The position numbers and the translations under genes are program-made. From Candidatus Eiseniibacteriota bacterium (GTDB taxonomy: Bacteria; Arandabacterota; Arandabacteria; Arandabacterales; Arandabacteraceae), in the NCBI GenBank assembly GCA_043810925.1, contig JBDRNT010000041.1, positions 1 through 39,101 on the forward strand: a DNA stretch of 39,101 nt. The letters run 5' to 3'. Below, piece by piece: positions 16,961 through 36,502 of this stretch (positions within the stretch are counted from its first letter, which is position 1; each line of letters starts with the position of its first letter). The notes under the pieces were generated by a model. It was not told where the DNA came from, ran no database searches, and saw only the letters and a program-made list of their open reading frames with translations.

Positions 16961-17086
16961 AAGTCCTGCGGGTGGCTGCTCGGACGGCCATGTTCCACAC
17001 GGGTATTCCAATGCGATCATCGCAACTTCTTGATGAGCGCGAAATGCACCGAAGCGGCGCAGTCCATCGCCGGTCCGGCATGGTGA
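16961..17086 (+). repeat. att-like / serine-recombinase 3'-end copy S1
   Basis: Reads KSCGWLLGRPCSTRVFQCDHRNFLMSAKC...*; CGCAACTTCTTGATGAG (17021-17037) is 16/17 identical to 30564-30580. Confidence 0.6.
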
Positions 17087-17152: not shown

Positions 17153-17169
17153 ATACGGGTGTGGGGTAT
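17153..17169. promoter_or_regulatory. CsoR-type operator
   Basis: ATAC-GGGTGTGGG-GTAT, i.e. TAC/GTA inverted repeat around a G-tract, upstream of csoR. Confidence 0.6.
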
Positions 17170-17200
17170 CCAAAGAAATATGAAAGGGGGTATGGATTCA

Positions 17201-17482
17201 ATGATTGATGACACGGTGGAGGGCGACGCTCTCAAGCGATTGAGGCGGATCGAGGGCCAGGTGATCGGGGTCCAGAAGATGATAAAGGAGCGTAGATACT
17301 GCATGGACATTGTCAATCAGGTATCGGCGGTCGAGGCAGCTCTTCACAGGGTATCCAAAATCGTTCTGAGGAATCATATCAAGACCTGTGTGCTCTCGGC
17401 TTTCAGATCAGGCGATACGGACGACGTAACCCGCAAAGTCGACGAGCTGATGCGGGTATACGACAATGTCCGCTTGAAGTAG
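17201..17482 (+). CDS. csoR: Copper-sensing transcriptional repressor, CsoR/RcnR family
   Basis: RLRRIEGQV.G.QKMI...YC.DI; Cys-His-Cys ligands (RYC, HIKTC); alternative start at 17192. Confidence 0.88.
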   Translation: MIDDTVEGDALKRLRRIEGQVIGVQKMIKERRYCMDIVNQVSAVEAALHRVSKIVLRNHIKTCVLSAFRSGDTDDVTRKVDELMRVYDNVRLK

Positions 17483-17586
17483 GTGGCCGTGATGATTCAA
17501 AAGTCTGGTAATGCAATCTGCTCAGATGAGTTTCTTGCTATCCGCGTCGCATTCGGGGTGCCGGATGCTACCGAGGGAGGTTTACG

Positions 17587-18294
17587 ATGTTGCGAAGTCA
17601 GCTGATAAGGAACGATGTAAAGATCACCGGGCTGGTTATATTCTCGGCAATCATGATCATCGGCGGTTTCGTACTTGCCGCAGAGCCGGAGGTCGGCTCG
17701 CCCGAGCAAGCCAAGGAAGATACCTACCCGCTGGAAACGTGTATCGTCTCGGGCGAGAAGCTCGGTTCGATGGGCACGCCCTTCATCTATGAGCACGAAG
17801 GCCGTGAGATCCGATTCTGCTGCAAGGGTTGCGTTGGCGGTTTCCAGAAGGATCCCGCCGGTTACCTAAAGAAGATGGACGAGGCCATCATCGCCGGCGA
17901 GGTCCCGGACTATCCACTTGATACTTGCGTTGTGAGCGGCGATACTCTGGGGACGATGGGCGATCCCGTGGACCGCGTGTACGACAACCGGCTCGCACGC
18001 TTATGCTGCGCCGGCTGCATCCACAAGTTTGAAAAGCAACCCGATCAGTATATGAAGATCATAGATGAAGCAAGGGCGGCCCGGGCTGCCGAGCAGTCAC
18101 CGAGGCCGTACCCTCTGGATACATGTATCGTATCGGGAGGCAAGCTGGGAGCGATGGGCGAGCCGGTGACCTATGTATATGAAGGTCAGGAGATTCTGTT
18201 CTGCTGCGCGGGCTGCGTCCCTCAGTTTGAGAAGAATCCGGAGAAATACATGAAGAAGCTGATCTCTCTGGAAGCTGACAAGACCGGAGAGTAA
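17587..18294 (+). CDS. Exported triple YHS/TRASH-like metal-binding protein
   Basis: Signal peptide plus three repeats YPLxTCxVSGxxLGxMGxP...(F/L)CCxGC. Confidence 0.8.
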   Translation: MLRSQLIRNDVKITGLVIFSAIMIIGGFVLAAEPEVGSPEQAKEDTYPLETCIVSGEKLGSMGTPFIYEHEGREIRFCCKGCVGGFQKDPAGYLKKMDEAIIAGEVPDYPLDTCVVSGDTLGTMGDPVDRVYDNRLARLCCAGCIHKFEKQPDQYMKIIDEARAARAAEQSPRPYPLDTCIVSGGKLGAMGEPVTYVYEGQEILFCCAGCVPQFEKNPEKYMKKLISLEADKTGE

Positions 18295-18322
18295 CATCCG
18301 GCGAACAAGGAGGGCGTGGATC

Positions 18323-19804
18323 TTGGCGGTACGAACAGGCCTTAGAAGCGCATGCGGCAAGGGGGTGCGTCCCTGCCTGAGCATGCCGGCCTTCTGGCTG
18401 ATGTCGGTGGCGCTGCTTGCAGGGCTCGCCGGGTGTGCGTCGGTTGAGGAGCGGCAGGCTTTCCTCAATCTCAAAATAGAAGCCGGAGCGTTCGCCGGTG
18501 AGGCCGATGCCTCCGCAGCTGGTATGATCCCGGAACTTGGTGAAGATGCCACACTTTCGGACTACACGGCGTACGCTCTTTTGCGGAACCCCGGGCTGGA
18601 GGCGGCCTTCAATGACTGGAAGGCGGGCCTCGAAAGGGTCTCTCAGGCCCGCTCGCTCCCCGACCCTCGATTCACGTATGTCCATTATGTCGAGGCGGTC
18701 GAGACACGTGTCGGCCCTCAAGAACGGTCCTTCGCCCTGATGCAGACCTTCCCCTGGTTGGGAAAACTCCAGCGGCAAGGCGACATCGCCTTCAAAGAGG
18801 CCGAGGCGGCACGGCAAAGATACGAGGCCGCAAGACTCAGGCTGATCTACCAGTTGAAGCTCGCATACTATGAGTATTACTATCTCTGGCGCGCCATCTC
18901 AGTTATGGAGACCGACATCAAACTGGTCTCGAATCTTGAGGGGATCGCAAGGACGAAGTACGAGGTCGGCACTGTTCCGTATTCCACCCTCATCAAGGCC
19001 CAGGTGGAGATGGGGAAGCTCGAGGAGACGCTCGCGACCCTCATGGACCTCGAAGACCCCACTGTCGCCCGGTTGAACAAGACGCTCGGACGTCCGCCGG
19101 ACGCCTACCTGGCGCGGCCGACGTCCCTGGACACTGAACCGATCACTTCTAGCGACGACGATATCCTGGCAGAACTCAAGAGGAACAACCCGGAACTTCT
19201 CGCCCTCGATCTCATCGTTTCAAAAGAAGAGGCATCTATCGGCCTGGTGCGACAGGGGTACTTCCCCGATATTACACTGGGCGCGACGGTCGTGAGAACC
19301 GGCGACGCGCTGAATCCTCAACTGGAGGACAGCGGTAAGGACCCCGTGATGGCGACAGTCTCGCTCAATCTTCCTATCTGGATCGGCAAACACCGCGCAG
19401 CGGGAAGAGAAGCTCGCGCACGGCTTCACGCAACAGCCAAACGTCGTGAGGATCACGAGAACCAGCTTCTGAGCGATCTCAAGCTGGCTCTCTTCGGCTT
19501 CCGCTCGGCAGAGCGAAAGATAGACCTTTATGGCGATTCATTGATTCCAAAGGCCGAGCAGGCGCTGACCGCATCCCGGAAGGCTTTTTCCGCCGATAAG
19601 GCGGATTTCTTCGATCTGATCGAAGCCCAGCGCACGCTATTGGAATTCCAATTGGCCCATGAGCGGGCGCTGGCCGATCGCGCCGAGCGCCTCGCCGAGA
19701 TCGAAATGTTGATCGGCCGGCAGGTCAGGCCGGAACAGAGCGTGGGGCCGGGCGTAGGAATGGACAGCCCGGCGCCTCCCGAAGCGGAGTCCGAGCCTGA
19801 GTAG
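18323..19804 (+). CDS. TolC-family outer-membrane efflux lipoprotein (CusC-like)
   Basis: Lipobox LAGC, ARSLPDP, QTFPWLGK, YFPDITLG, SLNLPIW; position in the operon. Confidence 0.9.
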   Translation: MAVRTGLRSACGKGVRPCLSMPAFWLMSVALLAGLAGCASVEERQAFLNLKIEAGAFAGEADASAAGMIPELGEDATLSDYTAYALLRNPGLEAAFNDWKAGLERVSQARSLPDPRFTYVHYVEAVETRVGPQERSFALMQTFPWLGKLQRQGDIAFKEAEAARQRYEAARLRLIYQLKLAYYEYYYLWRAISVMETDIKLVSNLEGIARTKYEVGTVPYSTLIKAQVEMGKLEETLATLMDLEDPTVARLNKTLGRPPDAYLARPTSLDTEPITSSDDDILAELKRNNPELLALDLIVSKEEASIGLVRQGYFPDITLGATVVRTGDALNPQLEDSGKDPVMATVSLNLPIWIGKHRAAGREARARLHATAKRREDHENQLLSDLKLALFGFRSAERKIDLYGDSLIPKAEQALTASRKAFSADKADFFDLIEAQRTLLEFQLAHERALADRAERLAEIEMLIGRQVRPEQSVGPGVGMDSPAPPEAESEPE

Positions 19805-19822
19805 GCCGAGGAGGTAGCGATT

Positions 19823-21724
19823 ATGAAGGATGGGATCGAGAAAAAACCGGGAAGGGGCTATTCGTGGAAGATGGTTGCCATCTTGTGCATCGGGGCTACA
19901 GCCCTCATAGCAATCGGCATCTGGGGTGGTCATTCCATAGGCAAGAGCGAAAAGGCTGAAGCCTTGGGCGGCGACCACGCGATGGATCAGGCCGGACAGG
20001 CTGAGATCTGGACATGTTCGATGCACCCGCAGATACGGCAGCCGAAACCCGGCAAGTGCCCGCTTTGTGGCATGGACCTGGTTCCGGTCACTGAAGCAGG
20101 CGCGGGAGATGCCGGCGCGAGGGAACTCAGGCTTTCTCCGGCTGCGATGAAACTCGCTGAGATCCAGACCGCTGCCGTTGAGAGAAGAGTTGTCGCCGCC
20201 GAGGTCAGGATGGCCGGCAAAGTCGACTATGACGAGACCCGTGTGAGCTATATCACTGCCTGGGTTCCCGGCCGGCTCAATCAGATGTACATCGATTACA
20301 CGGGTGTTGCGGTCGAACAGGGCGCCCCCATGGTATCGATCTACAGTCCCGAACTCGTGGTGGCGCAGGAGGAACTCATCCAGTCGGTAAGGGCGATGGA
20401 GAATCTGCAGACAAGTGAAGTCGAAAGCCTGAAACGGACGGCGCGAGAGACGCTCCATGCAGTGCGGGAAAAGCTGCGTCTCCTTGGGCTCACACCGGAC
20501 CAGATCTCGGAAATAGAAACGCGAGGCACGGTATCGGATGAGATCGTCATCGGGGCTCCCGCCGGCGGCGTCGTGGTCGACAAGGCCGCAGTCGAGGGCC
20601 AATACGTAACCACCGGTACGCTGATTTATACTATTGCAGACCTCACCCGCGTCTGGGTCAAACTGGACGCGTACGAGTCGGACCTTCCCTGGCTCCGGTC
20701 CGGCCAAGATGTCGAGTTTACGGCCGAAGCCCTTCCGGGTGAGACCTTCAATGGTGAAGTGGCTTTCATCGATCCCGTGCTGGATCCTAAAACCCGGACG
20801 GCCAAGGTCCGGGTGAACGTGGAGAATCCCGGCGGTAGGCTCAAGCCTGCGATGTTCGTGCGAGGTGTGGTTAGCGCGGACGTGGCTCCGGTCGGCCGGG
20901 CCCAGGCACCATTGGTGATCCCGGCTTCGGCTCCGCTCATTACGGGCAAACGCGCGGTGGTTTATCTCGAGACCGAGCCCGGACTTTATACGGGTATGGA
21001 AATCGTGCTCGGTCCGCGGGCCGGCAACTTCTATGTCGTCGAGGAAGGACTCGAGGAGGGCCAGCGCGTCGTCACGAACGGCAATTTCAAGATAGACAGC
21101 GCAATTCAGATTCTTGCCAAACCCAGCATGATGAACCCGGAGGGCGGAGGGCCTCTGCCCGGTCATCAGCATGGTGGCGCGGGAAGTTCCGGCAGTGTTG
21201 CCGCTGGGTATCATGCTGAAGCGCGATTCATTGTCCCTGCAGAATTCGCGGACCAGATTGCCCGCGTGTATGACTCCTATCTGGAAATCCACCACGGCCT
21301 CAGTCGTGACTCGCTTGAAAACGCCAAGGCCGCCGCGAAGCACCTCGAAGCGAGGGTCGGCTCCGTAGACATGACGCTCCTCGGGGGAGCCGCCCACAAC
21401 GCCTGGATGGATTATCTTGGCGGGCTTAAGGCTCATGCGGGCATGGTCCGGTCGGCGGAGGATATCACCGCGGCAAGAAGCGGATTCGCGCCGCTTTCGG
21501 AGACCATGTATGCCGCGCTAAAGAGTTTCGGGGCGGGTGGCAGTACGCCCGTCTACCGCTTCCACTGCTCGATGGCCTTCGGTGGCAGCGGGGCAAACTG
21601 GCTTCAAAGCACCAGGGAAGTCGAGAATCCTTACTGGGGCGCGGCAATGTTCAGTTGCGGCGAGATGACGGAAAGTGTAGCCGCCGGCTCGGAAGACGAA
21701 CCGGGAGAGCACCACCATGAGTGA
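19823..21724 (+). CDS. cusB: CusB-like RND membrane-fusion protein with heavy-metal-binding domain and C-terminal DUF3347-like domain
   Basis: WTCSMHPQIRQPKPGKCPLCGMDL, YSPEL..AQEEL, LKPAMF; C-terminal CSMAF...W...NPYWG..M..CG. Confidence 0.88.
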   Translation: MKDGIEKKPGRGYSWKMVAILCIGATALIAIGIWGGHSIGKSEKAEALGGDHAMDQAGQAEIWTCSMHPQIRQPKPGKCPLCGMDLVPVTEAGAGDAGARELRLSPAAMKLAEIQTAAVERRVVAAEVRMAGKVDYDETRVSYITAWVPGRLNQMYIDYTGVAVEQGAPMVSIYSPELVVAQEELIQSVRAMENLQTSEVESLKRTARETLHAVREKLRLLGLTPDQISEIETRGTVSDEIVIGAPAGGVVVDKAAVEGQYVTTGTLIYTIADLTRVWVKLDAYESDLPWLRSGQDVEFTAEALPGETFNGEVAFIDPVLDPKTRTAKVRVNVENPGGRLKPAMFVRGVVSADVAPVGRAQAPLVIPASAPLITGKRAVVYLETEPGLYTGMEIVLGPRAGNFYVVEEGLEEGQRVVTNGNFKIDSAIQILAKPSMMNPEGGGPLPGHQHGGAGSSGSVAAGYHAEARFIVPAEFADQIARVYDSYLEIHHGLSRDSLENAKAAAKHLEARVGSVDMTLLGGAAHNAWMDYLGGLKAHAGMVRSAEDITAARSGFAPLSETMYAALKSFGAGGSTPVYRFHCSMAFGGSGANWLQSTREVENPYWGAAMFSCGEMTESVAAGSEDEPGEHHHE

Positions 21725-24700
21725 TTCGAGCGACGGCAGGTCCGGGGAGAGCTTCTCCGCGATCGGCGCGGTCATCGGCTTCTTTCTCAGGAACAAAGTA
21801 ATCGTGATACTCGGGGTGCTGGCCCTGGTCTTCTGGGGTATCGGTGTGGCCCCATTCGACTGGGACATCAAGCGCCTGCCGCGCGACCCGGTCCCCGTTG
21901 ACGCTATTCCTGACATCGGAGAGAACCAGCAGATCGTATTCACGACATGGGCAGGCCGGTCGCCCCAGGACGTCGACGACCAGATCTCCTATCCTCTGAC
22001 AGCGGCTCTTATCGGTGTTCCCGGAGTCAAGACCGTTCGAAGTTTTTCGATGTTGGGTTTCTCCACCATCTACGTCATTTTCAAGGAAGATGTAGAGTTC
22101 TACTGGTCCCGCTCCCGTATCCTGGAGAAGCTTAACAGCCTCCCACCGGGTCTCTTACCTGACGGGGTGCAGCCCGCACTGGGGCCCGACGCCACGGCGC
22201 TCGGCCAGGTTTTCTGGTACACGCTTGAAGGCCGTGACGAAGACGGCAGCCCCGCCGGTGGATGGGACCTCGATGAGCTTCGGAGTGTCCAGGACTGGAC
22301 GGTCCGATATGCGCTCCTCTCCGCCGAGGGTGTGAGCGAGGTCGCATCGGTGGGTGGCTTCGTCCGCGAGTACCAGATTGATGTGGATCCCAATGCGATG
22401 CTCGCAAGCGGCGTTTCCCTCGAAGAGGTCTTCACGGCGGTGCGGATGGCCAACGTGGATGTAGGGGCGCGCACTATCGAAGTTAACCAGGTCGAATACA
22501 TTATCCGCGGCATCGGTTTCATTAAGGGTCCCGAGGATATCGAGAATACCGTAATCAAGATGAAGGACAATGTACCGATCTATGTGAAGACCGTGGCCAG
22601 GGTCTCACGGGGGCCGGCCCTCAGGCGCGGCGCACTCGATAAGGAAGGCACGGAAGCGGTCGGTGGAGTAGTGGTGGTCCGCTACGGCGAAAACCCGCTG
22701 GCCGCCATAAACAACGTCAAGAAGAAGATCGCGGAGATCGCCCCCGGTCTGCCGAAGAAGATCCTCCCGGACGGCACCGTGAGCCGGGTAACGATAGTCC
22801 CGTTCTACGACCGCACCGGACTGATTCAACAGACCCTGGGCACCCTGAAATCGGCGCTGACTGAAGAAATCCTTGTTACGATCATCATCGTGCTCATCAT
22901 GGTTATGCACCTGCGGAGTTCATTGCTGATCTCCGGACTGCTGCCCCTGGCCGTCCTTATGTGCTTCATCGCGATGAAAATGTTCGGCGTTGATGCCAAT
23001 ATCGTTGCCCTGTCTGGTATTGCGATTGCGATCGGCACCATGGTGGACATGGGGATCGTCATCACGGAGAACATCATCAAGCACCTGGACGAGGCAGATC
23101 CGGGTGAGGACCGGCTGGAGGTCGTACTCAGGGCATCAAAAGAGGTGGGTTCGGCGGTGGTGACCGCGGTCAGTACTACGGTTGTGAGTTTCCTGCCGGT
23201 ATTCACCATGGTTGCAGCCGAGGGGAAGCTCTTCAGACCCCTTGCATTCACGAAGACCTTTGCCCTCATAGCCTCGGTGGTTGTCGCTATCACAGTCCTT
23301 CCGTCGCTGGCGCACCTTCTTCTCACCGCAAAGAGCATAAAGCCACGGGCCTTCCGCCTGGGCATCCACGGCTCGGCCGTACTTGCGGGTATTGCCGTAA
23401 TTGTGATCACGCTTGTAAGAAGCGTCTCGGGGGCGGGCTCAGCACCTGGCTACGTCTGGTGGGTGCTGGGACTGGTGCTCATCGGAATAGGAGCGTATCA
23501 TCTCGTCTCCGAACGGCTTCCTGAGCGGGGCCGCCGGTGGGCCCCGAAGGCAAGCAATGTGATAATCGCTGTAGTCGTCGCCATAGTCCTTACCAGACAC
23601 TGGATGCCCCTGGGTCTCGACAAGAATCTCTTGATCAACGTCGTTTTCGTTGCAGCCCTGATCGGGAGCTTCCTTGCGATCATTCTTCTCTTTTACAAGT
23701 TTTATGCGCCGGTGCTTAAGTGGTGTCTAGGCCATAAGCTCGCGTTTCTTGCGATTCCTGCGGTTCTCACCTTTCTCGGTGTGATGACCTGGCTGGGCTT
23801 CAGCACGTTCTTCGGGTGGCTGCCCCTGGGTGTCAGGACGTCGTGGCCGACCTCGGCGCTTGTGCACACCTTCCCGGGCCTGGGCAAGGAGTTCATGCCT
23901 CCGCTCGATGAGGGCTCCTACCTCCTGATGCCGACCACAATGCCCCATGCCTCGATCGGAGAGGTCATGGATGTTTTGAGCAAGCAGGACATGGCAATTA
24001 CCCGGATACCGGAGGTGGAGTCGGCCGTCGGCAAAATCGGCAGGGCCGATACGCCGCTCGATCCGGCGCCCATCTCGATGATTGAAACCGTGATCAATTA
24101 TCACCCGGAGTATATTGAGGATCGTAGCGGATATCTTCTGACTTTCCAGCATGACAGCGATGAAAACGACTACTTCCGGGACGTGGTGGGAAATCCGGTT
24201 CCGGCGGGTGATGGCGAGCCCTACATAGTCAAGGGACGGTTTGCGCGTGACGCCGAGGGCAGTCTGATCCCCGAACGGGGGGGTAAGCCCTTCCGACTCT
24301 GGCGGCCGCCGCTCGATCCCGAGCTCAATCCCGGCAGGGAAGCCCAGCCGGGCATAAGAGAGCCCGACGATATCTGGCGGGAGATCCAGAAGGCCGCCGA
24401 GATCCCCGGCACCACCCCGGCGCCAAAGCTTCAGCCCATAGCTGCGCGCATAGTGATGCTTCAAAGCGGTATGCGGGCACCCATGGGTGTAAAGATAAAG
24501 GGGCCGGACCTCAAGACCATAGAAGGTGTGGGACTGGAGATAGAAAGACTGCTTAAGGAAGTCCCGGCCGTGGATGCCTCAATGGTCATAGCGGACCGCA
24601 TCGTCGGGAAGCCCTATCTCGAGATAGAAATCGACCGTATGGCCATTGCCCGCTATGGGATTCACCTGGCGAAAGTACAGGATGTGATCGAGGTTGCCGT

Positions 24701-25766
24701 CGGCGGCCGGCGGATCACCACCACGGTGGAAGGGCGCGAGCGCTATCCGGTACGGGTCCGCTACATGCGAGAACTGAGGGACCGGATCGAGTCGCTGGGA
24801 AGAATCCTGGTATCTGCCCCTGACGGGACCCAGGTCCCGCTGGAGCAGCTGGCAAGCATCGAATACGTCCGCGGCCCGCAGGTCATAAAAAGCGAAGACA
24901 CCTTCCTCGTGGGCTATGTACTCTTCGACAAGAGGCCTGGATTTGCGGAGGTTGATGCCGTCGAGCAGGCAAAGACATATCTCGACTACAAGGTTGAGAC
25001 GGGGGACCTGGAGATACCTGCCGGCGTGAGCTATGTCTTCGCGGGCAACTATGAGAACCAACAGCGGGCGCAGCGCACCCTCAGCTGGGTGCTGCCACTG
25101 GCCCTCTTCATCATCTTCATGATCCTCTATCTCCAATTCCGGTCGGCTGCAAGGACCTGGCTGGTGTTCTCCGGCATCTTTGTGGCCTGGGCGGGCGGTT
25201 TTCTAATGATCTGGCTCTATGGGCAGGGTTGGTTCCTGGACTTCTCCTTTGCAGGTGTTGGCATGCGGGATCTCTTTCAGGTGCACCCCGTGAATCTCAG
25301 TGTCGCGGTGTGGGTCGGTTTCCTGGCTCTCTTCGGCATCGCGTCGGACGATGGTGTCATCATGACCACCTATCTCGATCAGAGATTCTCCCGGCAGGTG
25401 CCCAGGACGACCGAAGAGATCCGCCAGGCGACGCTTGAGGCGGGGCTGCGGCGGGTGCGTCCGTGTCTCATGACTACAGCTACCACTGTCATAGCCCTGA
25501 TCCCGGTGCTGACCTCTACCGGGAGGGGTTCCGACGTCATGGTGCCGATGGCGATTCCTTCCTTCGGCGGAATGCTCCTTGAACTCATCACCATGTTCGT
25601 CGTACCCGTGCTTTACGCGGCGCTCAAGGAATTCCAGCTCAACACCGGCTGGAACGGCAAGATAATCGACGCGGTGGCCTTCATAGGCGCCCCCATCCTT
25701 CTACCCGCCGTTGTGATTCACGGCGAGTTGGCGGAGCGCCGAAAGCGAAGAACCGGGCAACGGTGA
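21717..25766 (+). CDS. cusA: CusA/CzcA-family heavy-metal efflux RND transporter (Cu+/Ag+)
   Basis: VDAIPDIGENQQIV, GIAIAIGTMVD, GKLFRPLAFTKT; Met triad equivalents LLMP, ISMIET, IVMLQSG; RVRPCLMT. Confidence 0.95.
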   Translation: MSDSSDGRSGESFSAIGAVIGFFLRNKVIVILGVLALVFWGIGVAPFDWDIKRLPRDPVPVDAIPDIGENQQIVFTTWAGRSPQDVDDQISYPLTAALIGVPGVKTVRSFSMLGFSTIYVIFKEDVEFYWSRSRILEKLNSLPPGLLPDGVQPALGPDATALGQVFWYTLEGRDEDGSPAGGWDLDELRSVQDWTVRYALLSAEGVSEVASVGGFVREYQIDVDPNAMLASGVSLEEVFTAVRMANVDVGARTIEVNQVEYIIRGIGFIKGPEDIENTVIKMKDNVPIYVKTVARVSRGPALRRGALDKEGTEAVGGVVVVRYGENPLAAINNVKKKIAEIAPGLPKKILPDGTVSRVTIVPFYDRTGLIQQTLGTLKSALTEEILVTIIIVLIMVMHLRSSLLISGLLPLAVLMCFIAMKMFGVDANIVALSGIAIAIGTMVDMGIVITENIIKHLDEADPGEDRLEVVLRASKEVGSAVVTAVSTTVVSFLPVFTMVAAEGKLFRPLAFTKTFALIASVVVAITVLPSLAHLLLTAKSIKPRAFRLGIHGSAVLAGIAVIVITLVRSVSGAGSAPGYVWWVLGLVLIGIGAYHLVSERLPERGRRWAPKASNVIIAVVVAIVLTRHWMPLGLDKNLLINVVFVAALIGSFLAIILLFYKFYAPVLKWCLGHKLAFLAIPAVLTFLGVMTWLGFSTFFGWLPLGVRTSWPTSALVHTFPGLGKEFMPPLDEGSYLLMPTTMPHASIGEVMDVLSKQDMAITRIPEVESAVGKIGRADTPLDPAPISMIETVINYHPEYIEDRSGYLLTFQHDSDENDYFRDVVGNPVPAGDGEPYIVKGRFARDAEGSLIPERGGKPFRLWRPPLDPELNPGREAQPGIREPDDIWREIQKAAEIPGTTPAPKLQPIAARIVMLQSGMRAPMGVKIKGPDLKTIEGVGLEIERLLKEVPAVDASMVIADRIVGKPYLEIEIDRMAIARYGIHLAKVQDVIEVAVGGRRITTTVEGRERYPVRVRYMRELRDRIESLGRILVSAPDGTQVPLEQLASIEYVRGPQVIKSEDTFLVGYVLFDKRPGFAEVDAVEQAKTYLDYKVETGDLEIPAGVSYVFAGNYENQQRAQRTLSWVLPLALFIIFMILYLQFRSAARTWLVFSGIFVAWAGGFLMIWLYGQGWFLDFSFAGVGMRDLFQVHPVNLSVAVWVGFLALFGIASDDGVIMTTYLDQRFSRQVPRTTEEIRQATLEAGLRRVRPCLMTTATTVIALIPVLTSTGRGSDVMVPMAIPSFGGMLLELITMFVVPVLYAALKEFQLNTGWNGKIIDAVAFIGAPILLPAVVIHGELAERRKRRTGQR

Positions 25767-25768
25767 TT

Positions 25769-25807
25769 CAGGCCTTCCAGGACCATGCGGATCTTCTCTT
25801 CAGTGGA
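25769..25807 (-). mobile_element. Tiny remnant of an IS3-family OrfA
   Basis: Minus-strand translation STEEKIRMVLEGL resembles the IS3 OrfA motif SAEEKIRIVLEGL. Confidence 0.45.
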
Positions 25808-25816
25808 GAGCTACAG

Positions 25817-25906
25817 TCATACTATCTCAAGGAGATCTTTCAGCTGTTTGAGAAACGGATAACCTTGGTTGAGAGAGTAAACGCGCGTTCTGCCAAACGA
25901 TCGCCG
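25817..25906 (-). pseudogene. Fragment of a winged-helix regulator gene
   Basis: RRSFGRTRVYSLNQGYPFLKQLKDLLEIV* resembles the wing/C-terminal helix of wHTH proteins; no start. Confidence 0.45.
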
Positions 25907-26084
25907 GTCCGTCTAATCAATTAGATGGGAACCACACCTGGCATGCCGTGCAAGTACCATATTCTCAGGTGACTGTCAAAGCATTCACCGAAATGGTACG
26001 GCGAGTAGATATTCTGCCGAGAAGGTCCCCTTCGAGGCTAGTTGCCTCGCTGAAGCTAACGCTCATGCCTGCTCGAATCTGCCG

Positions 26085-26546
26085 CTAGCCGAAGCCCGGC
26101 CTGACACCAAACAGCAAGGCGATGGTCAGTACAGACCCGCTCCCAATGAGACAGCCAGACATCTTTCCCAGAGATGTGGTTATTGCCTCTCTTGATGCTT
26201 CGACACCATGCCCACGAAGCCACTCTGCGATACTTCCCTCAAAGAAACCTGCTATGGCGTCCGTCAGGGCATCGCCAATGACTACACCCGCGATGGCACC
26301 CGCTACACCGTAAGTCATCCCACCCCAGATGGCTGGAACCGTCAGTAATCCGGTGTCTATTGCACCAAAGACCATGTCCGGGACCGCGCCGACCAATGAA
26401 CGATGTGCGAGGATGATCCCCAGGAGAGGAAACACGGAGATGGCGAGGACAACCGGGCCCACAGGAAGCCGCTGCTGAAGCGTGTAGTAACCAACCAGTG
26501 CCACTGGCAGGGCGACAAAACCGACATAGAAACCCTTTCGTATCAT
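26085..26546 (-). CDS. Hypothetical membrane protein (TMEM65/VIT-like motifs)
   Basis: Several TM helices; FGAIDTG, IGDALTDAIAG, GCLIG. Confidence 0.7.
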   Translation of the reverse strand: MIRKGFYVGFVALPVALVGYYTLQQRLPVGPVVLAISVFPLLGIILAHRSLVGAVPDMVFGAIDTGLLTVPAIWGGMTYGVAGAIAGVVIGDALTDAIAGFFEGSIAEWLRGHGVEASREAITTSLGKMSGCLIGSGSVLTIALLFGVRPGFG

Positions 26547-26634
26547 TCGCTACCTCGTTTCCCTTCACCCAACGATCAATCGGAAGCTTCGGGGCACATT
26601 CACGCGGATATCCTCCAGCGCATGGTTCGGCGGA

Positions 26635-27021
26635 TCATAAACTCTCAATGACTGTTCTCAACCTGTCTCGAACTTCCTGGGCCACCTGTGCCAAGTTGTC
26701 GTTCTCAACAGACTGCATGGCGGAGACCGGGTCAATTGCGGAGACTTCGGCCGAACCCTCTTCCGTTGCTTGAACTACTACATTGCAGGGAAGCAGTAGA
26801 CCGATATTGCGCTCGGCCTGAAGCGCCTGATGGGCGAACGGCGGATTGCACGCACCGAGAATGATATAGTCCCTGAAATCCACGTCGAGTTTCTTTTTCA
26901 GTGTCGCCTTGACGTCGATCTCGGTCAGAACCCCGAAGCCCTCGGCCTTGAGGGCATCGATTACCTTCGGGATCGCCTCTTCGTACGAGCACTGTAAGAC
27001 CTTCGTAAAATAGTAGCCCAT
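26635..27021 (-). CDS. DUF302-domain protein
   Basis: GFGVLTEID...YIILGACNP...IGLLLPCNVVV; AAGGAGG SD before ATG 27021. Confidence 0.9.
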   Translation of the reverse strand: MGYYFTKVLQCSYEEAIPKVIDALKAEGFGVLTEIDVKATLKKKLDVDFRDYIILGACNPPFAHQALQAERNIGLLLPCNVVVQATEEGSAEVSAIDPVSAMQSVENDNLAQVAQEVRDRLRTVIESL

Positions 27022-27216
27022 TGTTCTTTCCTCCTTCGTTGCCGGACTATGACCCAGGTGGTTTCCGCAGAACACCCTTTGTTCGCCGAGCCAGTCTGAC
27101 AATAATCGACGTTGCACACTTATCAAGTAGCATGTTTTCGAGCACTCATCAACAGCTGTGCTGTTTACCCCGGGTGCTATGCCGCTTACACGTTGTAGGG
27201 GTCAGCGATCCTGTCC

Positions 27217-27259
27217 ACTGACGTGTCCCGCATGGGTTCCAAATCTGTACCAATGGCAC
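27217..27259 (+). repeat. att-like copy S2 (degenerate)
   Basis: GACGTGTCCCGCATGGGTTCCAAATCTGTACCAATGGCAC aligns ungapped 28/40 with 30648-30687. Confidence 0.5.
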
Positions 27260-29340: not shown

Positions 29341-29445
29341 CGTTTCGAGTGTATCCCTTGGTTCCCCAAACTGAACGATCTTCGCAACTCTTTCATGAGG
29401 GAGGAATGTCTCAGATTGGGACAACTCGCCGCTAACATGTCATAG
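29341..29445 (+). repeat. att-like copy S3
   Basis: Reads RFECIPWFPKLNDLRNSFMREECLRLGQLAANMS*; shares CCCCAAACTG with S6/S8 and TTCGCAACT...ATGAG with S7. Confidence 0.65.
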
Positions 29446-29464
29446 GACTTAGGATTGTCGCGCG

Positions 29465-29495
29465 CTGACATGTTCCACATGGCTTCGCATACGGG
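29465..29495 (+). repeat. att-like copy S4 (left half only)
   Basis: CTGACATGTTCCACATGGCTTC (LTCSTWL) matches GACATGTTCCGCACGCCTCC at 30648 and CATGTTCCACACGG at 16989. Confidence 0.5.
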
Positions 29496-29524
29496 TTTCC
29501 CACTGCCAACTGCTGCTCAATCGG

Positions 29525-30418
29525 TCAAGGTTTGTAAGGGAAGGTGACTTGCGTAGGATCTGTGCCATCGGCGTTCACAACCCAGATGACCATTGCGCGG
29601 CCATCGGCCGATCGAGCCCCGTAAGCTATTCTCCTGCCGTCAGGTGACCAAGAGGGCACAGCCCCGGGGCAGGCAACCAGTTGCTGGCCCGTTCCATCCG
29701 GATTGATCACCCAGATTCCGACACTCTTCTTCTTGCTTTCACAGTATGCGCCGTAGGTCACCAATCTCCCATCAGGCGACCACCGGGCATGCCAACCGTA
29801 TCCGTATTGCTGATCATAGGGAATAGTACCAAGGAAGTTGCCTGCCGTGTCGTACATCTCCATTATGAAGCACAGCAGCTTGGACCCGTCGGGTGACCAG
29901 TCTGGTTCACCTTGAGAACAGATCCACCTGGTCTCTTGAGTTTCCAGATTGTAGATCGTGACCCCGATCGGATCCTCGCTGTTGTCAAAGGCGATCATCG
30001 TACCGCACGGAGAGAAGTCAGGTGTATAGCCACGAATGGGAAGCATTTCTTCATCACCGGTTTCGACATTCACCAGTACTATTCCCGGTACGCTGCTGTG
30101 TACAATGACGTGGCTGCCATCAGGCGACCAGTCCGCGATGATTCCTGAGGTGACATAGCGTGTCTTGGCAGTCTCGAGATCAACGATCCAGGTAGTATAG
30201 TCGCCGAACTCCAGATGCTCTTCCCACGTCACAGCGATATGGGTGTATGCAACGAGGCTCGTGTCGGTGGGACTCCACTTTGGCCAAGCGTCCTGCATAT
30301 ATGCATGGTCAGGCTCAATGTAATAGGAATCGGTGACTTTATCATCATCACAACCAATCATGGTGAGGGACAGTGCAAGGAATGCTAAGACCAAGACGAC
30401 TCTGGGCATTACGTTCAT
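29525..30418 (-). CDS. TolB-like PD40 (WD40-like) beta-propeller lipoprotein
   Basis: Lipobox MIGC; repeated (P)xWSPDG motifs. Confidence 0.85.
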   Translation of the reverse strand: MNVMPRVVLVLAFLALSLTMIGCDDDKVTDSYYIEPDHAYMQDAWPKWSPTDTSLVAYTHIAVTWEEHLEFGDYTTWIVDLETAKTRYVTSGIIADWSPDGSHVIVHSSVPGIVLVNVETGDEEMLPIRGYTPDFSPCGTMIAFDNSEDPIGVTIYNLETQETRWICSQGEPDWSPDGSKLLCFIMEMYDTAGNFLGTIPYDQQYGYGWHARWSPDGRLVTYGAYCESKKKSVGIWVINPDGTGQQLVACPGAVPSWSPDGRRIAYGARSADGRAMVIWVVNADGTDPTQVTFPYKP

Positions 30419-30545
30419 GGCTGTCCACCTCTGCTCACGCCGATGCATGTGCCGGCAGCTTCCTGTACTACTTTACCTCACCCCGCCCGAGCTGTCCAGA
30501 TTCGCTCCTGTTTCAGCCGTCTGATCATGGGAAACTCAAGCGATA

Positions 30546-30641
30546 CCCAACGGAGAAGGCTTTCGCGACTTCTTGATGAGTGAGGAATACATCAGTCTGG
30601 TACAACATGTGGGTACCACGTCATATAGCAACGTGCCTTAA
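30546..30641 (+). repeat. att-like copy S5 (right half)
   Basis: CCCAACGG-A-GAAGGCTTTCGCGACTTCTTGATGAGTGAGGAATAC... aligns about 40/54 (one gap) with 30725-30778; reads EGFRDFLMSEEY...*. Confidence 0.65.
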
Positions 30642-30642
30642 T

Positions 30643-30707
30643 CGGCCGACATGTTCCGCACGCCTCCCCAAACTGCACCATAGGCAGAACTTTCAGGGTG
30701 GTGTTCG
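30643..30707 (+). repeat. att-like copy S6
   Basis: 30662-30707 is 45/46 identical to 33643-33688 (GCCTCCCCAAACTGCACCATAGGCAGAACTyTCAGGGTGGTGTTCG). Confidence 0.9.
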
Positions 30708-30720
30708 GTCTACGTTCTCC

Positions 30721-30779
30721 CTCCCCCAACGGGACGACTTTCGCAACTTTCTGATGAGCCAGAAGTGCGTCAAGATGGC
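30721..30779 (+). repeat. att-like copy S7 (core plus right half)
   Basis: CTCCCCCAACGGGACGACTTTCGCAACTTTCTGATGAGCCAGAAGTGC, reading LPQRDDFRNFLMSQKC. Confidence 0.7.
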
Positions 30780-30887
30780 GGGAGGTGATTCTCTAACGGC
30801 AGCAGGCGCTGCTACTCCGAGCCGAACTTAGCGGCTGCCTTGGCGGCCTTCGCGGCTTCCTCTTCCTCCAAGACCCTTACGAGAGGC

Positions 30888-30948: not shown

Positions 30949-33240
30949 ATGCGAGGACATACCGGCTGTTGTTGCATCCCTGATGATGCCCTCATCCGAT
31001 ACCCCCGTGTGGTGGTTACTGCCGCCTGGATCATCATCGCATTTACCCTGATCACATACGGACCTGCCTTGTGCGGGTCTAACCAGAATGCCAGAGTCGC
31101 CGTTCATGTGATCCCCCACGATGGGGGACGAACTTGTAATCACGGCATGCCCGAAATCTCCTACTGTACCGACCTACGCACGACGCTGGACACCTGCGGC
31201 GATGTCGATTTCTTCCCCGTCTTCTTTGAAGTCATCGAATGTCAAGGCATCGAATATGGCGTGACCTGGCCTGGGAGTTATAGCTGTGCTTTCACCAGCT
31301 GCAGCGATCTTAAGATTGGTGATATAATCTGGCCGGGCGACGGGGTCTCGCACGCCTGGTTTGACTGTCAACCTGGGCCTGTTGCCATCCCCGGATGGGG
31401 CTGGGTTAGTGTAAATGATTCAGGTCACATACGTGTCGTGCCCCACCCGGGAACCGGTGAGATTACCGTAGGCGACTGTGTGCGCCGGCTTGACGATATT
31501 GAAGATGTTTACTCTGCCGGGGTCTGCGGTGCTCTGGGTGATGACCCAAGCGGCTGGGGCTATAACCCGCTCAATGTAGGTAAGCGCGACGGGCTGGGCG
31601 GTGAATGTGCGGCGCCGGACCAGAGCCTGATCTATACGATCCAGTATGACAGCCCCAACTCCAACCTGATACACGATGCTACCCTAGTCGACTACCTCCC
31701 TCCGGAGATCGAGTTTGTCTCCACCACCGATGGCGGCACATACGATATCGGGACGCACGCGGTCACCTGGGACATCGGGACTATCAGCCAGTATGCCGCC
31801 GATTCCGCACAGGTGATCACGCATATCCCGCCGGCCACACCTTACGGAACGTTGCTTACCAATCGTTGTCGGATAACCGGTCTGGAGACCGGTCCTACTG
31901 AGGTCGAGATGCTCACAACGGTCTGCACCGGAGGATCTCAGGCGCTCACAATCACAAAGAACGACGGGCTCGGCAGCGATGGTACGGTTCCCGGGGCAGG
32001 GCTTACATACACAATCACCTATGCCAACTCGGGGAATCTGGAATCGGTCCACGATGCGATTTTGACTGATCTTCTGCCGCCGGAGGTCGAGTTCGTCTCG
32101 GCCGATGATCCCGGGGTTTATGATGCAGGCCAGCACAGCATCACCTGGGATGTGGGAACACTTGGAAGTGACGCATCGGGGACGGCACAGGCACAGGTAG
32201 TCGTCTCGATGTCCACCGACCCCGGGGTGCGGCTCATAAACCGCTGCTGGATAGTGTGCAGTGAAGCACCGGCTGCCGAGACAGCCGAGACGACGAGGGT
32301 CCACTCAGTGGAGTCTGAACCCCTTGCCATCAGCAAGCGTGCCAAGGGGCCATCCTCGTCCTTGGGGCCTTTCTTCCCCGGAGATGACATAACGTACACC
32401 ATAACCTATGGCAACAACACCAACGACTATGCCGTTCATGGCGTCCTCCTGAGAGATGTGCTTCCCGCTCAGACAGGCTTTGTCTCATCCAGCGACTGGG
32501 GTATGTATGATAGCGAAAGCCACTCCGTGACCTGGGACATAGGCACACTTGCACCGGATGAAGCGGGGTCCCGCCAGGTTGTCGTGAGGGTGCCCTTGGA
32601 TACCGAGCCCGGCACCATCATTTCCAATCTGTGCAGGGTTTTCAGTGACGAGGCACCGAGCTCTAAAGCCACCGCCCAGACAGTGATCTCCAGTTTCGGA
32701 GAGTGTATGATCGCCATCCATGTGCGCCCTCATCAACAGACCACAACATGTACCCAGATCGGCTCCGATGTAAACGACTGCGGTGACATCGTGACCACGA
32801 CGGGTTCTTGCGACGTCGACGTATTCCCGGTCTTCTTTGAGATTGTCGAATGCCAGGGGTTGGGCTACGGTCTAACCTGGCCCGCCGAGTGGGGTGAGAT
32901 GGCTTTCACGAGCTGTAGTGACGTCACCGAGGGCACTCTTGCTGTGCCCGGCGATGGCGTCTCACACAGTTGGACAAGTTGCCGTACCAACTACGTGGTA
33001 ATCCCGGGCTACGGTCGGCTTATCGCTGACAGTCCGGGCCTCATCGAGTTGATCCACCACCCGGCAACCGGGATGATAAGCCTGACCACCTGCAGGGGCT
33101 ATGAGTATCAGGTCTATCCGATGGGTGGTTTGGTGTATCGAGCCGGCGTGTGCGGTGCCGCAGGCGACCCGGTTGAATGCGGAGGACCCCAGCGCATAGT
33201 CCCCACCACCTGGAGCAGCATCAAAGCTTTGTTCAGGTGA
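30949..33240 (+). CDS. Secreted protein with three DUF11-like Ig repeats flanked by a duplicated Cys-rich domain; TW tail
   Basis: Three repeats of YTIxY...HxxxLxDxLP....FVS....G.YD...H..TWD.GT; ends VPTTWSSIKALFR*. Confidence 0.85.
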   Translation: MRGHTGCCCIPDDALIRYPRVVVTAAWIIIAFTLITYGPALCGSNQNARVAVHVIPHDGGRTCNHGMPEISYCTDLRTTLDTCGDVDFFPVFFEVIECQGIEYGVTWPGSYSCAFTSCSDLKIGDIIWPGDGVSHAWFDCQPGPVAIPGWGWVSVNDSGHIRVVPHPGTGEITVGDCVRRLDDIEDVYSAGVCGALGDDPSGWGYNPLNVGKRDGLGGECAAPDQSLIYTIQYDSPNSNLIHDATLVDYLPPEIEFVSTTDGGTYDIGTHAVTWDIGTISQYAADSAQVITHIPPATPYGTLLTNRCRITGLETGPTEVEMLTTVCTGGSQALTITKNDGLGSDGTVPGAGLTYTITYANSGNLESVHDAILTDLLPPEVEFVSADDPGVYDAGQHSITWDVGTLGSDASGTAQAQVVVSMSTDPGVRLINRCWIVCSEAPAAETAETTRVHSVESEPLAISKRAKGPSSSLGPFFPGDDITYTITYGNNTNDYAVHGVLLRDVLPAQTGFVSSSDWGMYDSESHSVTWDIGTLAPDEAGSRQVVVRVPLDTEPGTIISNLCRVFSDEAPSSKATAQTVISSFGECMIAIHVRPHQQTTTCTQIGSDVNDCGDIVTTTGSCDVDVFPVFFEIVECQGLGYGLTWPAEWGEMAFTSCSDVTEGTLAVPGDGVSHSWTSCRTNYVVIPGYGRLIADSPGLIELIHHPATGMISLTTCRGYEYQVYPMGGLVYRAGVCGAAGDPVECGGPQRIVPTTWSSIKALFR

Positions 33241-33339
33241 TACCGCACCCGGAGAGGACCCAGAGAACCGGGATCCAGCCAGTCGATCAGGCCGCGCGCC
33301 AGTACCGCTGAACCCCGGAGATCCTAAACGTCATGGGCG

Positions 33340-33690
33340 TTTGACGGCAAGATCGATGAGGGATTCTGGGAAAGGAAATCAGAAGAGTGGCGAGCTCATC
33401 AGGAAGACGTCCGAAAAGCCATGGACAACGCGAGGAGGCGAACAAGGTCTACCTGGGTGGGGGAATCAAGATAATCGAGGTTGCACAGAAGGCATATTCA
33501 ATATGGGCGAACCGGGATTCGCACGACAACCGTAGGATTCTGGATGCACTACTTTCGAATTGCACGCTCGATGGCGTAAGGCTAATGCCCACTTATAGAA
33601 AGCCGTTTTGCTGGCTTGTTGATCGGCCTCCCCATACCGTCTGCCTCCCCAAACTGCACCATAGGCAGAACTCTCAGGGTGGTGTTCGAG
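33340..33690 (+). pseudogene. 5'-truncated, frameshifted C-terminal remnant of a large serine recombinase
   Basis: FDGKIDEGFWERKSEEWRAHQEDVRKAMD, frameshift near 33430, then EEANKVYLGGGIKIIEVAQKAYSIW...RRILDALLSNCTLDGVRLMPTYRKPFCWL; resembles the coiled-coil/C-terminal region of these recombinases. Confidence 0.75.
33643..33688 (+). repeat. att-like copy S8 at the 3' end of the recombinase remnant
   Basis: 45/46 identical to 30662-30707. Confidence 0.9.
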
Positions 33691-33859
33691 ATCACTCCCC
33701 GGTCAGGTTCCTCGGATGGGTCTTATGTCGCTCGGTGAATACCGCCTGCCACCAAGCCGATTGTGGAGGGACGGTATCCCTCGCCAGGCGGGTAGATGAC
33801 GAGATGCTGGAGCATCCGAACGAAGTGGAGCAGGCGAGAGATTCGATCGACAGTAATGG

Positions 33860-34993
33860 TTGCACCGAGGTACAATGAAGATGCCAACTGAAATGCACAT
33901 AGTCATCAAGCAGAGCGCAGGTGAGGTGTGCGTGCTGGTGCGAGCGTTCTTAGTTTCGTCCGCAATGTTGTTCTTCGCGCTAACGCCTTGTTTCGGCCGT
34001 ACCTGGTATATCTCAGCGGATGGGCTCGGTGATGCTCCGACCATCCAAGCTGGTATCGATTCTGCTACCGTCGGAGATACCGTTCTTGTGGAATGCGGCA
34101 CGTACTACGAATTTGGCTTACACGGCCTAAAGCCCGGGGTCTTGATCACAAGTGAGACCGGCGAATACAGCTGCGTTACCATTGATGCTCAGCGCGAATG
34201 GAGTGTCTTTACTTGCTGGGACTCCGACAGCACCACAATCATCAAGGGGTTTACAATCACTCATGGTCAGTCGAGTGAAGATGAGGGCCCTCCAGGGGCG
34301 GGTGGTGGTATGAAATGCCAGAGTACAGTGCGGGTAGTGAACTGCCTCTTTCTGGACAATCTGACCTACGGGTATGGTGGTGCAGTCTACGTGGATACGG
34401 GTACGCCGAGGTTCGAGAATTGCGTCTTTATAGACAACACTGCTGCCCAGGGCGGCGCGATATACATTAGCCGCATGGCGGGTTGCATAGTCAAGGACTG
34501 TACTTTTGTGGGCAACTACACCGGTGATTCAGGAACGATCTATTGTAACGGGAGCTCACCACGAATACAGGGATGCACCTTCTACGGTAATGCTGCAGAT
34601 CATGGCGGCAGCGGAATATCGAGTCTGGATTCCGCCTCGCCTGAGATCGACAACACAATTATCGCTTATAGCACCTCTGGGGCAGGAGTTCGCTGCGACG
34701 AGCGGAGTCATCCGGCTTTCACCTGTTGTGATATCTATGGGAACAACGGCGGCGACTGGGACGAATACACCTCCAGCCAAAACGGAGTGAACGGGAACTT
34801 CTCGGCAGACCCGAAGTTCTGTGACACGCCGAACGGGGACTTCACTTTGGAGGCATGCTCGCCATGTCTACCCGGCAACCATCCTGACGGCTACGATTGC
34901 GGCGACATCATCGGAGCCTTCGGAGAAGACTGCGAATGCGAGACGGCGACGGAGCCATCCACCTGGGGCATGATCAAGTCAATGTACCGATAG
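33860..34993 (+). CDS. Secreted right-handed parallel beta-helix repeat protein; TW tail (true start probably near 33932-33938)
   Basis: DAPTIQAGIDSA..GDTVLV, FxxN...GGA(I/V) repeats, GNFSADPKFC; ends TEPSTWGMIKSMYR*. Confidence 0.85.
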   Translation: MHRGTMKMPTEMHIVIKQSAGEVCVLVRAFLVSSAMLFFALTPCFGRTWYISADGLGDAPTIQAGIDSATVGDTVLVECGTYYEFGLHGLKPGVLITSETGEYSCVTIDAQREWSVFTCWDSDSTTIIKGFTITHGQSSEDEGPPGAGGGMKCQSTVRVVNCLFLDNLTYGYGGAVYVDTGTPRFENCVFIDNTAAQGGAIYISRMAGCIVKDCTFVGNYTGDSGTIYCNGSSPRIQGCTFYGNAADHGGSGISSLDSASPEIDNTIIAYSTSGAGVRCDERSHPAFTCCDIYGNNGGDWDEYTSSQNGVNGNFSADPKFCDTPNGDFTLEACSPCLPGNHPDGYDCGDIIGAFGEDCECETATEPSTWGMIKSMYR

Positions 34994-35002
34994 GAGCGAG
35001 GG

Positions 35003-36433: not shown

Positions 36434-36502
36434 GGGGGTTTCATTCATGGCATGTTACATTGAATGCCGTTCCGTTGGCCGTCGTGCCAAAGGGGGTTCG
36501 AC

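Follow-up and report, generated by a model that had tools for sequence, protein, structure and literature searches.

In phages such as Bxb1, phiC31, LI/A118 and SPbeta, which integrate by means of a large serine recombinase (LSR), the attachment site attP lies outside the integrase gene and the targets are mostly protein-coding genes. Genomic islands at tRNA genes use tyrosine integrases almost exclusively: the tycheposon report counts tyrosine recombinases in 910 of 937 elements (10.1101/2020.12.28.424599), and the 2014 Islander paper holds that serine integrases were not known to target tRNA genes (PMC4383910). According to these reports, displaced direct fragments of the tRNA 3′ end mark old junctions, newcomers push older islands outward, and the arrays hold degenerate elements together with cargo (10.1101/2020.12.28.424599; PMC4383910). 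For IntP of Mx8 and for SSV-type integrases, the literature describes a recombinase open reading frame (ORF) that crosses attP and acquires a new 3′ end and C-terminus upon integration (PMC6070905; PMC4383910). Here we analyse a stretch of 39,101 nucleotides from Candidatus Eiseniibacteriota bacterium (contig JBDRNT010000041.1 of assembly GCA_043810925.1), hereafter the window, which is the entire contig C41 of genome G000. It contains eight related sites, S1 to S8, which on balance we regard as probable att junctions of LSR-borne integrative elements or cassettes that target tRNA or tRNA-like 3′ ends and carry attP inside the 3′ end of their LSR gene.

Anatomy of the sites in the window

The sites combine a left half (L), a core and a right-hand module (R1 or R2 in the window, R3 elsewhere) and are arranged as follows.

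S1, 16986..17085, + strand: degenerate L, degenerate core and R1 (nhmmer match 16990-17083, E 2.7e-7)
S2, 27219..27258, + strand: degenerate L-core-R2 (L-core-R2 profile, E 3.6e-5)
S3, 29347..29448, + strand: unrelated left side, core TTCCCCAAACTG and R1, with TAG at the family's stop position (R1 profile, E 1e-19)
S4, 29466..29481, + strand: isolated L with no core behind it, 20 nt past the S3 stop (14/16 match to L; E 0.04)
29525..30448, − strand: exported protein of PD40/beta-propeller type, the cargo gene between S4 and S5, antisense to the repeats (ORF; Pfam PF07676, E 9.3e-8)
S5, 30544..30641, + strand: degenerate core and R1, in which a 1-nt shift displaces the stop to TAA at 30639 (R1 profile, E 1.2e-9)
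S6, 30647..30712, + strand: L at 30647-30662, core at 30664-30673 and R2 module at 30674-30712 (L-core-R2 profile, E 1.3e-21)
S7, 30713..30805, + strand: second core (core′) CTCCCCCAACGGGAC and R1, in frame with S6 (R1 profile, E 3.6e-18; ORF 30580-30831)
33387..33644, + strand: C-terminal remnant of an LSR gene, ending ...SNCTLDGVRLMPTYRKPFCWLVDRPPHTVC (tblastn against the LSR of contig C181: 43% identity, E 1.4e-15)
S8, 33645..33690, + strand: core and R2, in frame from the LSR remnant (LPKLHHRQNSQGGV) (L-core-R2 profile, E 1.3e-14)

Besides the L copies of S4 and S6 there are degenerate ones at 16986-17001 (S1) and 27219-27234 (S2). The core reads CTCCCCAAAC at 30664 and 33645, CTCCCCCAAC at 30721 and TTCCCCAAAC at 29362; R2 (CACCATAGGCAGAAC) is found at 30676 and 33657 and recurs as a degenerate version in S2, and R1 is present in S1, S3, S5 and S7. 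S7 departs from the R1 family after ...VKMA, and S8 runs into a core′-like TCCCCGGTCAGG and non-R1 DNA. Across 70 nt, the S6 region is 84% identical to 33619-33688 at S8. Every motif named by a first-pass annotation of the window, made from the sequence alone, was recovered at its position, including the junction of CCCCAAACTG to R1 in S3, the equal distance of AAC from the core in R1 and R2, and the L that follows within ~20 nt of an R1 stop on both sides of the PD40 gene. This layout of R1 stop, ~20 nt and L, seen at S3-S4, is found again at S5-S6 and on contig C44.

The significance of the sites was assessed with nhmmer and two profiles (R1; L-core-R2) built solely from copies outside the window. 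All eight sites were matched, whereas the best E-values in 50 block-shuffled windows were 0.78 and 9.5 for the two profiles; S4 is marginal by itself because it consists only of a 16-nt L with 2 mismatches. As to other identities, no Rfam family reached its gathering score in the window, where the segment 29200-30950 gave chance-level matches only, and a hammerhead reading of CTGATGAG was dropped.

The first-pass annotation had described the sites as mosaics of one left half and core with two alternative right halves, as expected for attL/attR hybrids of one island. The mosaic structure is real: in 28 distinct copies, L-core is followed by R1 (14), R2 (7), R3 (6) or another sequence (1), and the partner changes at or just past the core, the copies diverging two to five bases past CCCCAAAC. 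L, R1 and R2 are likewise genuine, but right halves come in more than two kinds and left halves in more than one, and R1 and R2 are not the two alternatives of a single site. R2 spans 45-50 nt and is closed by a second core (often TGG-CTCCCC...), after which comes R1 or unrelated DNA. It stands between L-core and core′-R1 in S6-S7 of the window, on C64, C119 and C128 and in G007:C18, that is, in five of the 14 R2 copies shown; judged by this sequence context, it is a module between two cores and no equal of R1. In alignments made by eye, R2 seems to resemble the LSR coding end YRKPF...W (19/33 nt) and the start of R1 (15/28 nt). A single LSR island in the window, with L-core-R1 and L-core-R2 as its attL/attR (or attB) hybrids, would explain both the mosaic and the LSR remnant that reads into R2. 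We nevertheless hold this to be very improbable, since it is contradicted by a distribution that is genome-wide and lineage-wide: repeat modules occur on at least 20 contigs besides that of the window and in 10 further genomes, no fewer than three right sides are attached to L, and R2, lying between two cores, is itself followed by R1.

The recombinase end and the tRNA end

The LSR remnant at 33387-33644 reads in frame into core-R2 at S8, and its tail matches the homologue P0005. The fragment of ~100 residues has no Pfam match and lacks the domains that define an LSR (an N-terminal resolvase catalytic domain, then the recombinase and zinc-ribbon domains), whereas all 120 listed homologues carry PF00239, PF07508 and PF13408. 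A search of the genome contigs with a single LSR protein gave 2 loci. The near-complete paralogue on C181, whose gene matches PF07508, is the only near-full LSR of the clade in G000. At 6066-6381 of this locus (L015), the gene is interrupted after codon 477 by unrelated DNA that reaches the contig end and may be an insertion element.

The 120 best homologues have a common end, ...YRKPF(C/D)WLAEGxxxxxW, beyond which their tails diverge. Most tails (71/120) are of an antisense-tRNA class, such as LPGQDSNLQPSG or RGRRDSNPRPPA, and a further 26/120 stop no more than four residues past the W. R1-like tails (WRAIRDDFAEWLRSEECRDLAGHLE and similar) are present in 4/120 (P0026, P0031, P0036 and P0040) and R2-like tails, of QNF type, in 3/120; 15/120 are of other kinds and 1/120 could not be anchored. 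The first-pass annotation had inferred that recombination would change the C-terminal peptide of the recombinase and had proposed to look for both tail types among homologues. In agreement, the remnant runs into core-R2, and among homologues whose tails differ, R1-like and R2-like forms part at a common switch point. Neither outcome that would have spoken against that annotation, namely alignments no better than those of shuffled DNA or homologues with a single tail type and no switch point, was observed.

Of 80 metagenome loci surveyed, 59 cover the 3′ end of the LSR gene. The LSR stop falls within a tRNA gene of the other strand, at a depth of 12-66 nt, in 35 of the 59; one further locus has a tRNA beginning 27 nt downstream. 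The tRNAs are those for Asn (12), Ile (6), Arg (5), Asp (4), His (4), Gln (2), Glu (1), Trp (1) and Pro (1), and the closest LSR homologue adjoins one of the four tRNA-Asp genes. A Vampirovibrionales LSR overlaps tRNA-Pro by 12 nt, its conserved W codon being the antisense of CCA; the LSR of G009:C273 overlaps tRNA-Glu by 41 nt. On the basis of the 35 loci and the Vampirovibrionales case, we conclude that LSR genes of this clade are located at the ends of tRNA genes and that their reading frames extend over the junction. The single switch point of the 120 homologues, together with the stops inside tRNA genes, fits systems of the Mx8 type, in which the recombinase ORF crosses the crossover region and the C-terminus differs between the free and the integrated state; the free-state tail would here be R1. 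For the L020 element, a search over 10 kb did not reveal the far end. Other PF07508 genes of the phylum have unrelated tails; the exception is G002:C35, whose tail is antisense-tRNA-like.

A distant, AT-rich LSR locus, L086, is composed of an LSR, an R2-like tail (C|PIGHVQNF), ~150 nt, core′ and an R1-like sequence. The R2-like GTTCAGAACTTTTA(A/G) is found there at 3963 and 4250, ~290 nt apart, flanking the R1-like copy. This arrangement hints that the same system of modular repeats exists well beyond the phylum.

The tRNA end itself is recognizable in arrays of the repeat. The 3′ end of tRNA-Asp is ...GTCCCGTCGGCCCCGCCA, and its exact 18-nt antisense is TGGCGGGGCCGACGGGAC. Of the five C21 copies, one has this block ahead of R1 and the other four hold it as a 3-mismatch variant, while all three C33 copies have it in exact form; in the loci of G006, G008 and G009 it is exact before R1 in 5/6 tRNA-Asp-type copies, and the G009 copy has 1 mismatch. 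Past GGGAC the two sequences part, tRNA-Asp reading on TCGAACCC and the repeat GACTTTCGCAAC. On C21 of G000, tRNA-Asp occupies 5102-5179 (+) and the repeats 7616-13349 (−), downstream and antisense; on C7, tRNA-Asp at c43385-43462 and repeats at 40443-42432 (+) are related in the same way. An identical layout, tRNA-Asp followed by an antisense array, recurs in G006:C185 and G009:C80 from two other genera. These four loci display the Islander signature for tRNA-Asp, an intact tRNA gene and a displaced 3′ fragment of 18 nt in direct orientation, separated by foreign DNA.

The core of the window (CTCCCCAAAC.GGA) shares the form of the tRNA-Asp antisense block, and in six copies a core continues into the T-loop-like GGA(C/T)TCGAACT that constitutes R3. 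The first-pass account of the core was incomplete: the sequences point to the antisense of a tRNA 3′ end, comprising CCA, the acceptor strand and the 3′ strand of the T-stem. The identity is exact for the tRNA-Asp arrays, and the window core resembles a tRNA end. As a guess, the tRNA whose 3′ end matches GTTTGGGGAG could be tRNA-Asn.

In the alignment of S6 with S8, L takes the position of the last codons of the LSR remnant (RPTCSAR versus RPPHTVC). Since L occupies their place, it is best read as a diverged LSR gene end, which would make it the left arm of the element. On the right side, AACTT lies 15-19 nt past the AAC of the core in R1 and R2 and at 9-13 in R3; in real tRNA-Asp, AAC lies at 9-11 and is followed by CC, and TCGAAC is kept at the nearer place, as in R3. 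The register shift between R1/R2 and R3, read from the sequences, amounts to 5-6 bp. In LSR sites, the distance of the DBD2 motif from the centre is shorter in attB half-sites than in those of attP, by 5 bp in general and by 4 bp in SPbeta (PMC11722253). Owing to the resemblance between the two offsets, R1 and R2 may be P-type arms and the tRNA T-loop a B-type arm, which would lend further support, the motif assignment being our own.

The R1 module, its arrays and their cargo

R1 evolves like coding sequence in the frame that is continuous with the LSR. The 29 ungapped copies analysed come from eight genomes. Their column entropy at the first, second and third codon positions is 0.71, 0.46 and 1.02, and the synonymous share of codon differences is 31% in this frame compared with 8-26% in the five others. 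The stop falls at the identical codon in 29/29 copies (TGA 22, TAG 5, TAA 2). The frame continues from the W of the tRNA-end block, and an LSR gene to the left of R1 would end ...W RGRRD DFRNFLMSxECxxMAQMVANLA. Conservation begins at the junction, without a conserved start codon or upstream region, and R1 is joined to several different left sides.

As an RNA, R1 forms no extended structure: RNAalifold on the 29 copies gave 4 pairs and a consensus energy of −1.7 kcal/mol. A 6-bp hairpin (TGTGCC-loop-GGCACA) is nonetheless present at alignment columns 61-77, corresponding to 29407-29423 in S3. It is paired in 86% of cells, both partners are changed in 4 of its pairs (as with G-C to C-G in S3 and C85), and its covariation score was equalled by 0/500 shuffles, a modest covariation inside a coding-like tail. 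Together with the many cargo genes whose stop lies ~10 nt ahead of the R1 reverse complement, and with the short ORFs ending in R1 that gene callers often predict, this hairpin could mean that R1 serves the cargo genes as a stabilizer of the 3′ untranslated region or as a terminator on the other strand, or that it is a small free-standing gene, the link to recombination being secondary. We judge this to be improbable, and a little more so than the two rival explanations that follow. The hairpin is short and no T run comes after it, some cargo genes are co-directional with R1, and the predicted ORFs share neither start nor upstream region, conservation starting at the junction.

The repeat family is widespread. 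A 14-seed profile, which contained two window copies, gave 33 matches at E<0.01 in the 3.85-Mb assembly (40 listed), many of them on short contigs or close to contig ends. By BLAST, R1 matches occur in 11 of the 18 phylum genomes and in 8 of 11 genera, and L-core-R2 matches at E<=0.05 in 10/18 genomes. Such a number of copies, often at contig ends, could also be left by a non-autonomous dispersed repeat, such as a miniature inverted-repeat transposable element (MITE) or a repetitive extragenic palindrome (REP), of which R1, L and R2 would be parts and which would sometimes land at LSR genes and tRNA ends. L (TGACATGTT) and some R1 ends (AACATGTCA) are indeed inverted repeats in S3, C85 and L052. 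These are a minority, though, since most copies end ...AATCTGGCATGA. Moreover, every copy begins on the left with a tRNA-end block (exact for tRNA-Asp), the copies of an array all point the same way and are placed at the borders of genes, no target duplications were seen (a systematic search was not made), and a coding signature with a fixed stop is unexpected for a MITE. A dispersed repeat of this kind is therefore an improbable source of the family.

Co-oriented arrays comprise five copies on C21, five on C143, three on C33 and three on C7. Each interval holds one or two genes, mostly antisense to the repeat and in some cases in the direction of R1, and the end of the repeat is often ~10 nt from the stop of the cargo gene. 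Pfam identifies among the array cargo two AbiEi/AbiEii pairs, an MqsR/MqsA-like toxin-antitoxin pair, a serpin and exported proteins of beta-helix, NHL and PD40 types; relatives carry a sulfatase, a Ser/Thr kinase, a catalase, beta-lactamase-family proteins and a resistance-nodulation-division (RND) efflux operon, the last flanked on both sides by the same repeats in G001:C67. The cargo is island-like.

Repeats in one orientation, one or two genes per interval, a repeat ~10 nt behind the gene stop, integron-typical cargo and arrays free of LSR genes are also what integron-like capture by another recombinase would produce, with R1 as the equivalent of attC and the LSR remnants as cargo or unrelated hot-spot elements. 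We consider this no more probable than a dispersed repeat, and hence unlikely. None of the 14 PF00589 matches of the genome is on an array contig (C21, C7, C33, C143, C41), although these contigs are short and such a gene may be located just past a contig end. R1 lacks an extended fold, having one 6-bp hairpin and a consensus energy of −1.7 kcal/mol, and by eye, without a scan by an attC covariance model, it contains no RYYYAAC...GTTRRRY pair. Finally, its coding frame carries on from that of the LSR, and tails resembling R1 are present in four LSR homologues.

Further genes of the window may belong to such elements.

17159..25766, + strand: possible cargo between S1 and S2, encoding a CsoR-type repressor, a YHS/TRASH protein and Cus-like RND efflux proteins (Pfam)

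Over 17159-27126, the contents of the S1-S2 interval are a CsoR-type metal repressor, the YHS/TRASH protein, the RND trio and a DUF302 protein. The Cus-like trio consists of an OEP, a membrane-fusion protein with a heavy-metal-binding domain and an AcrB-family pump of 1349 residues. These metal genes may belong to an element, as mobile metal-resistance cargo.

Many cargo proteins encoded at 30949-37435 of the window and at 7781-10034 of C21 share a C-terminal (T/S)WG.IK..(Y/F)(R/K), which in several of them follows beta-helix, DUF11 or PD40 domains. Considering that FlgD_ig or Por_Secre_tail matches fall on some, this motif is probably a lineage-specific sorting signal. Serpin genes were found twice, at 37457-38044 (−) of the window as a C-terminal part of 195 residues and in a cassette of the C21 array (L002, 5278-6573, −).

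A proposed mechanism and its relation to known systems

The following model would accommodate these data. The LSR gene would converge on a tRNA gene and read across its own attachment site, with the core as the block common to element and target and the crossover inside the core or at its edge. L, as the diverged last codons of the LSR gene, would be the left arm (P), and R1 the right arm (P′), which also encodes ~24 residues. The element would carry a copy of the last ~18 nt of the tRNA within the end of its LSR gene, followed by R1. Recombination with the tRNA gene would insert the element, rebuild the tRNA and leave flank, tRNA-end block and R1 at the far side. Beside the tRNA, the integrated LSR would end in a short peptide encoded by the antisense strand of the tRNA gene; with an LSR gene placed to the left of R1, as in a free circle or a tandem array, the R1 residues would become its C-terminus, so that an intact gene of this clade would bear the R1 tail in the free state. 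Because the tail differs between the two states, each recombination would swap it, and because insertion regenerates the target, elements would stack as arrays. Most stacked elements would have lost their LSR and persist as units of one or two genes. R2 would be a further conserved module beside the LSR end, bounded by the second core. S2-S8 of the window (27.2-33.7 kb), perhaps from S1 onwards, would represent such a stack without a nearby tRNA. Directly observed are the site anatomy, the identity with tRNA, the coding-like evolution of R1 and the overlap of LSR and tRNA genes; by this account LSRs of the present family would have made the junctions and would be the agents of any present activity.

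Several observations weigh against this model. With respect to the enzyme, no LSR gene or tyrosine recombinase was found in any array interval examined, unlike the Islander trait of one integrase per island, and both local LSR copies are broken, one being the remnant of ~100 residues in the window and the other cut after ...SLYPA on C181. Close relatives of the LSR are scarce (2/18 phylum genomes at E<=1e-30), and the R1-like tails of the four homologues are divergent as well as rare. No intact LSR gene joined to R1 of this family was seen. An R1 peptide profile matched 112 proteins in 1.84 billion representatives, 109 of them of at most 177 residues; none is of LSR length, the longer three (334, 1739 and 1921 residues) each being matched in several stretches. 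That library holds one representative per 50% cluster, so LSR-R1 genes may be hidden in it. As to the target, ARAGORN called no tRNA in the window, so the Islander signature is absent there, and none in 12 loci that hold T-loop-like sequence with a core; in the tRNA-Asp arrays, left sides past the 18 nt are poorly conserved. LSR attachment sites are ~40-50 bp long with imperfect dyad symmetry about a central dinucleotide; here the dyad symmetry is weak, with 9-12/22 complementary positions in L-core-R1 about CCCCA|AC, which is the best-scoring centre in 3/4 L-core-R1 copies and not the best for R2 or R3 sites. The model gives R2 no role. Neither a circular junction nor an empty site nor an excision variant was seen. 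A sediment sequencing run with 5% of the sampled words yielded one piece on the epimerase gene and one tRNA-Asp-type R1 copy; it gave no joints and is uninformative on excision.

A variant in which the LSR runs an integron-like gene capture, with the tRNA 3′ end as the fixed insertion site, strikes us as rather unlikely, albeit clearly less so than capture by another recombinase. Each cassette of one or two genes would then carry the 18-nt tRNA-end block and R1 as its site. As cassette and tRNA have the same block for their left half-sites, insertion would regenerate both partners and cassettes would stack. The ~24-residue LSR tail would be supplied by the neighbouring cassette, and every R1 would thus be under coding selection; the tail could also set directionality in place of a separate directionality factor.

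A large and widespread LSR clade that ends inside tRNA genes addresses the gap left by the 2014 Islander statement, and the pattern is frequent among these bacteria. Should the tail swap have a function, LSRs would possess an inbuilt switch for their activity or direction, and control over LSRs is relevant because these enzymes are widely used in genome engineering. Such arrays would help to account for the turnover of accessory genes in an uncultured phylum, their cargo including toxin-antitoxin systems, exported proteins and metal efflux genes, and R1 together with the tRNA-end block is a simple search marker that would aid the annotation of such islands.

Compared with the described systems, the locus most resembles none entirely. 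Like tRNA/tmRNA islands of the Islander type, including the Prochlorococcus tycheposons, it has a tRNA 3′ end as target that is regenerated by element DNA; unlike them, it is associated with a large serine recombinase, has an extra conserved coding module of ~85 nt (R1) at each junction, and consists mostly of units of one or two genes without an integrase. With Mx8 and SSV-type elements it shares a recombinase ORF across the attachment site. Their enzymes, however, are tyrosine recombinases and not serine recombinases, and here the tail of the integrated state comes from antisense tRNA while the alternative tail, R1, is conserved across genera. Phage LSRs such as those of Bxb1, phiC31, LI/A118 and SPbeta have the same domains (PF00239, PF07508, PF13408) and short sites; their P- and B-type half-sites differ by a register shift (PMC11722253), which may have a counterpart here. 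In contrast to theirs, the identity block of the present family is 18 nt long, corresponds to a tRNA sequence and is situated within the coding 3′ end of the LSR itself. The arrays recall integrons (IntI, attI, attC) in their co-oriented cassettes of one or two genes, each ending in a conserved repeat, in a cargo rich in toxin-antitoxin and exported proteins, and in insertion apparently at a fixed site at the array head. They do not fit the definition of an integron: no IntI-type recombinase is present on the array contigs, the apparent fixed site is a tRNA 3′ end, and the repeat is no folded attC hairpin but is conserved in sequence and coding-like. A narrow literature search found no description of an LSR gene that abuts a tRNA and contains attP in its 3′ end, or of LSR-run cassette arrays. 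What sets the present system apart from those described is the combination of a serine enzyme at tRNA ends, a coding R1 at each junction and integron-like arrays without LSR genes.

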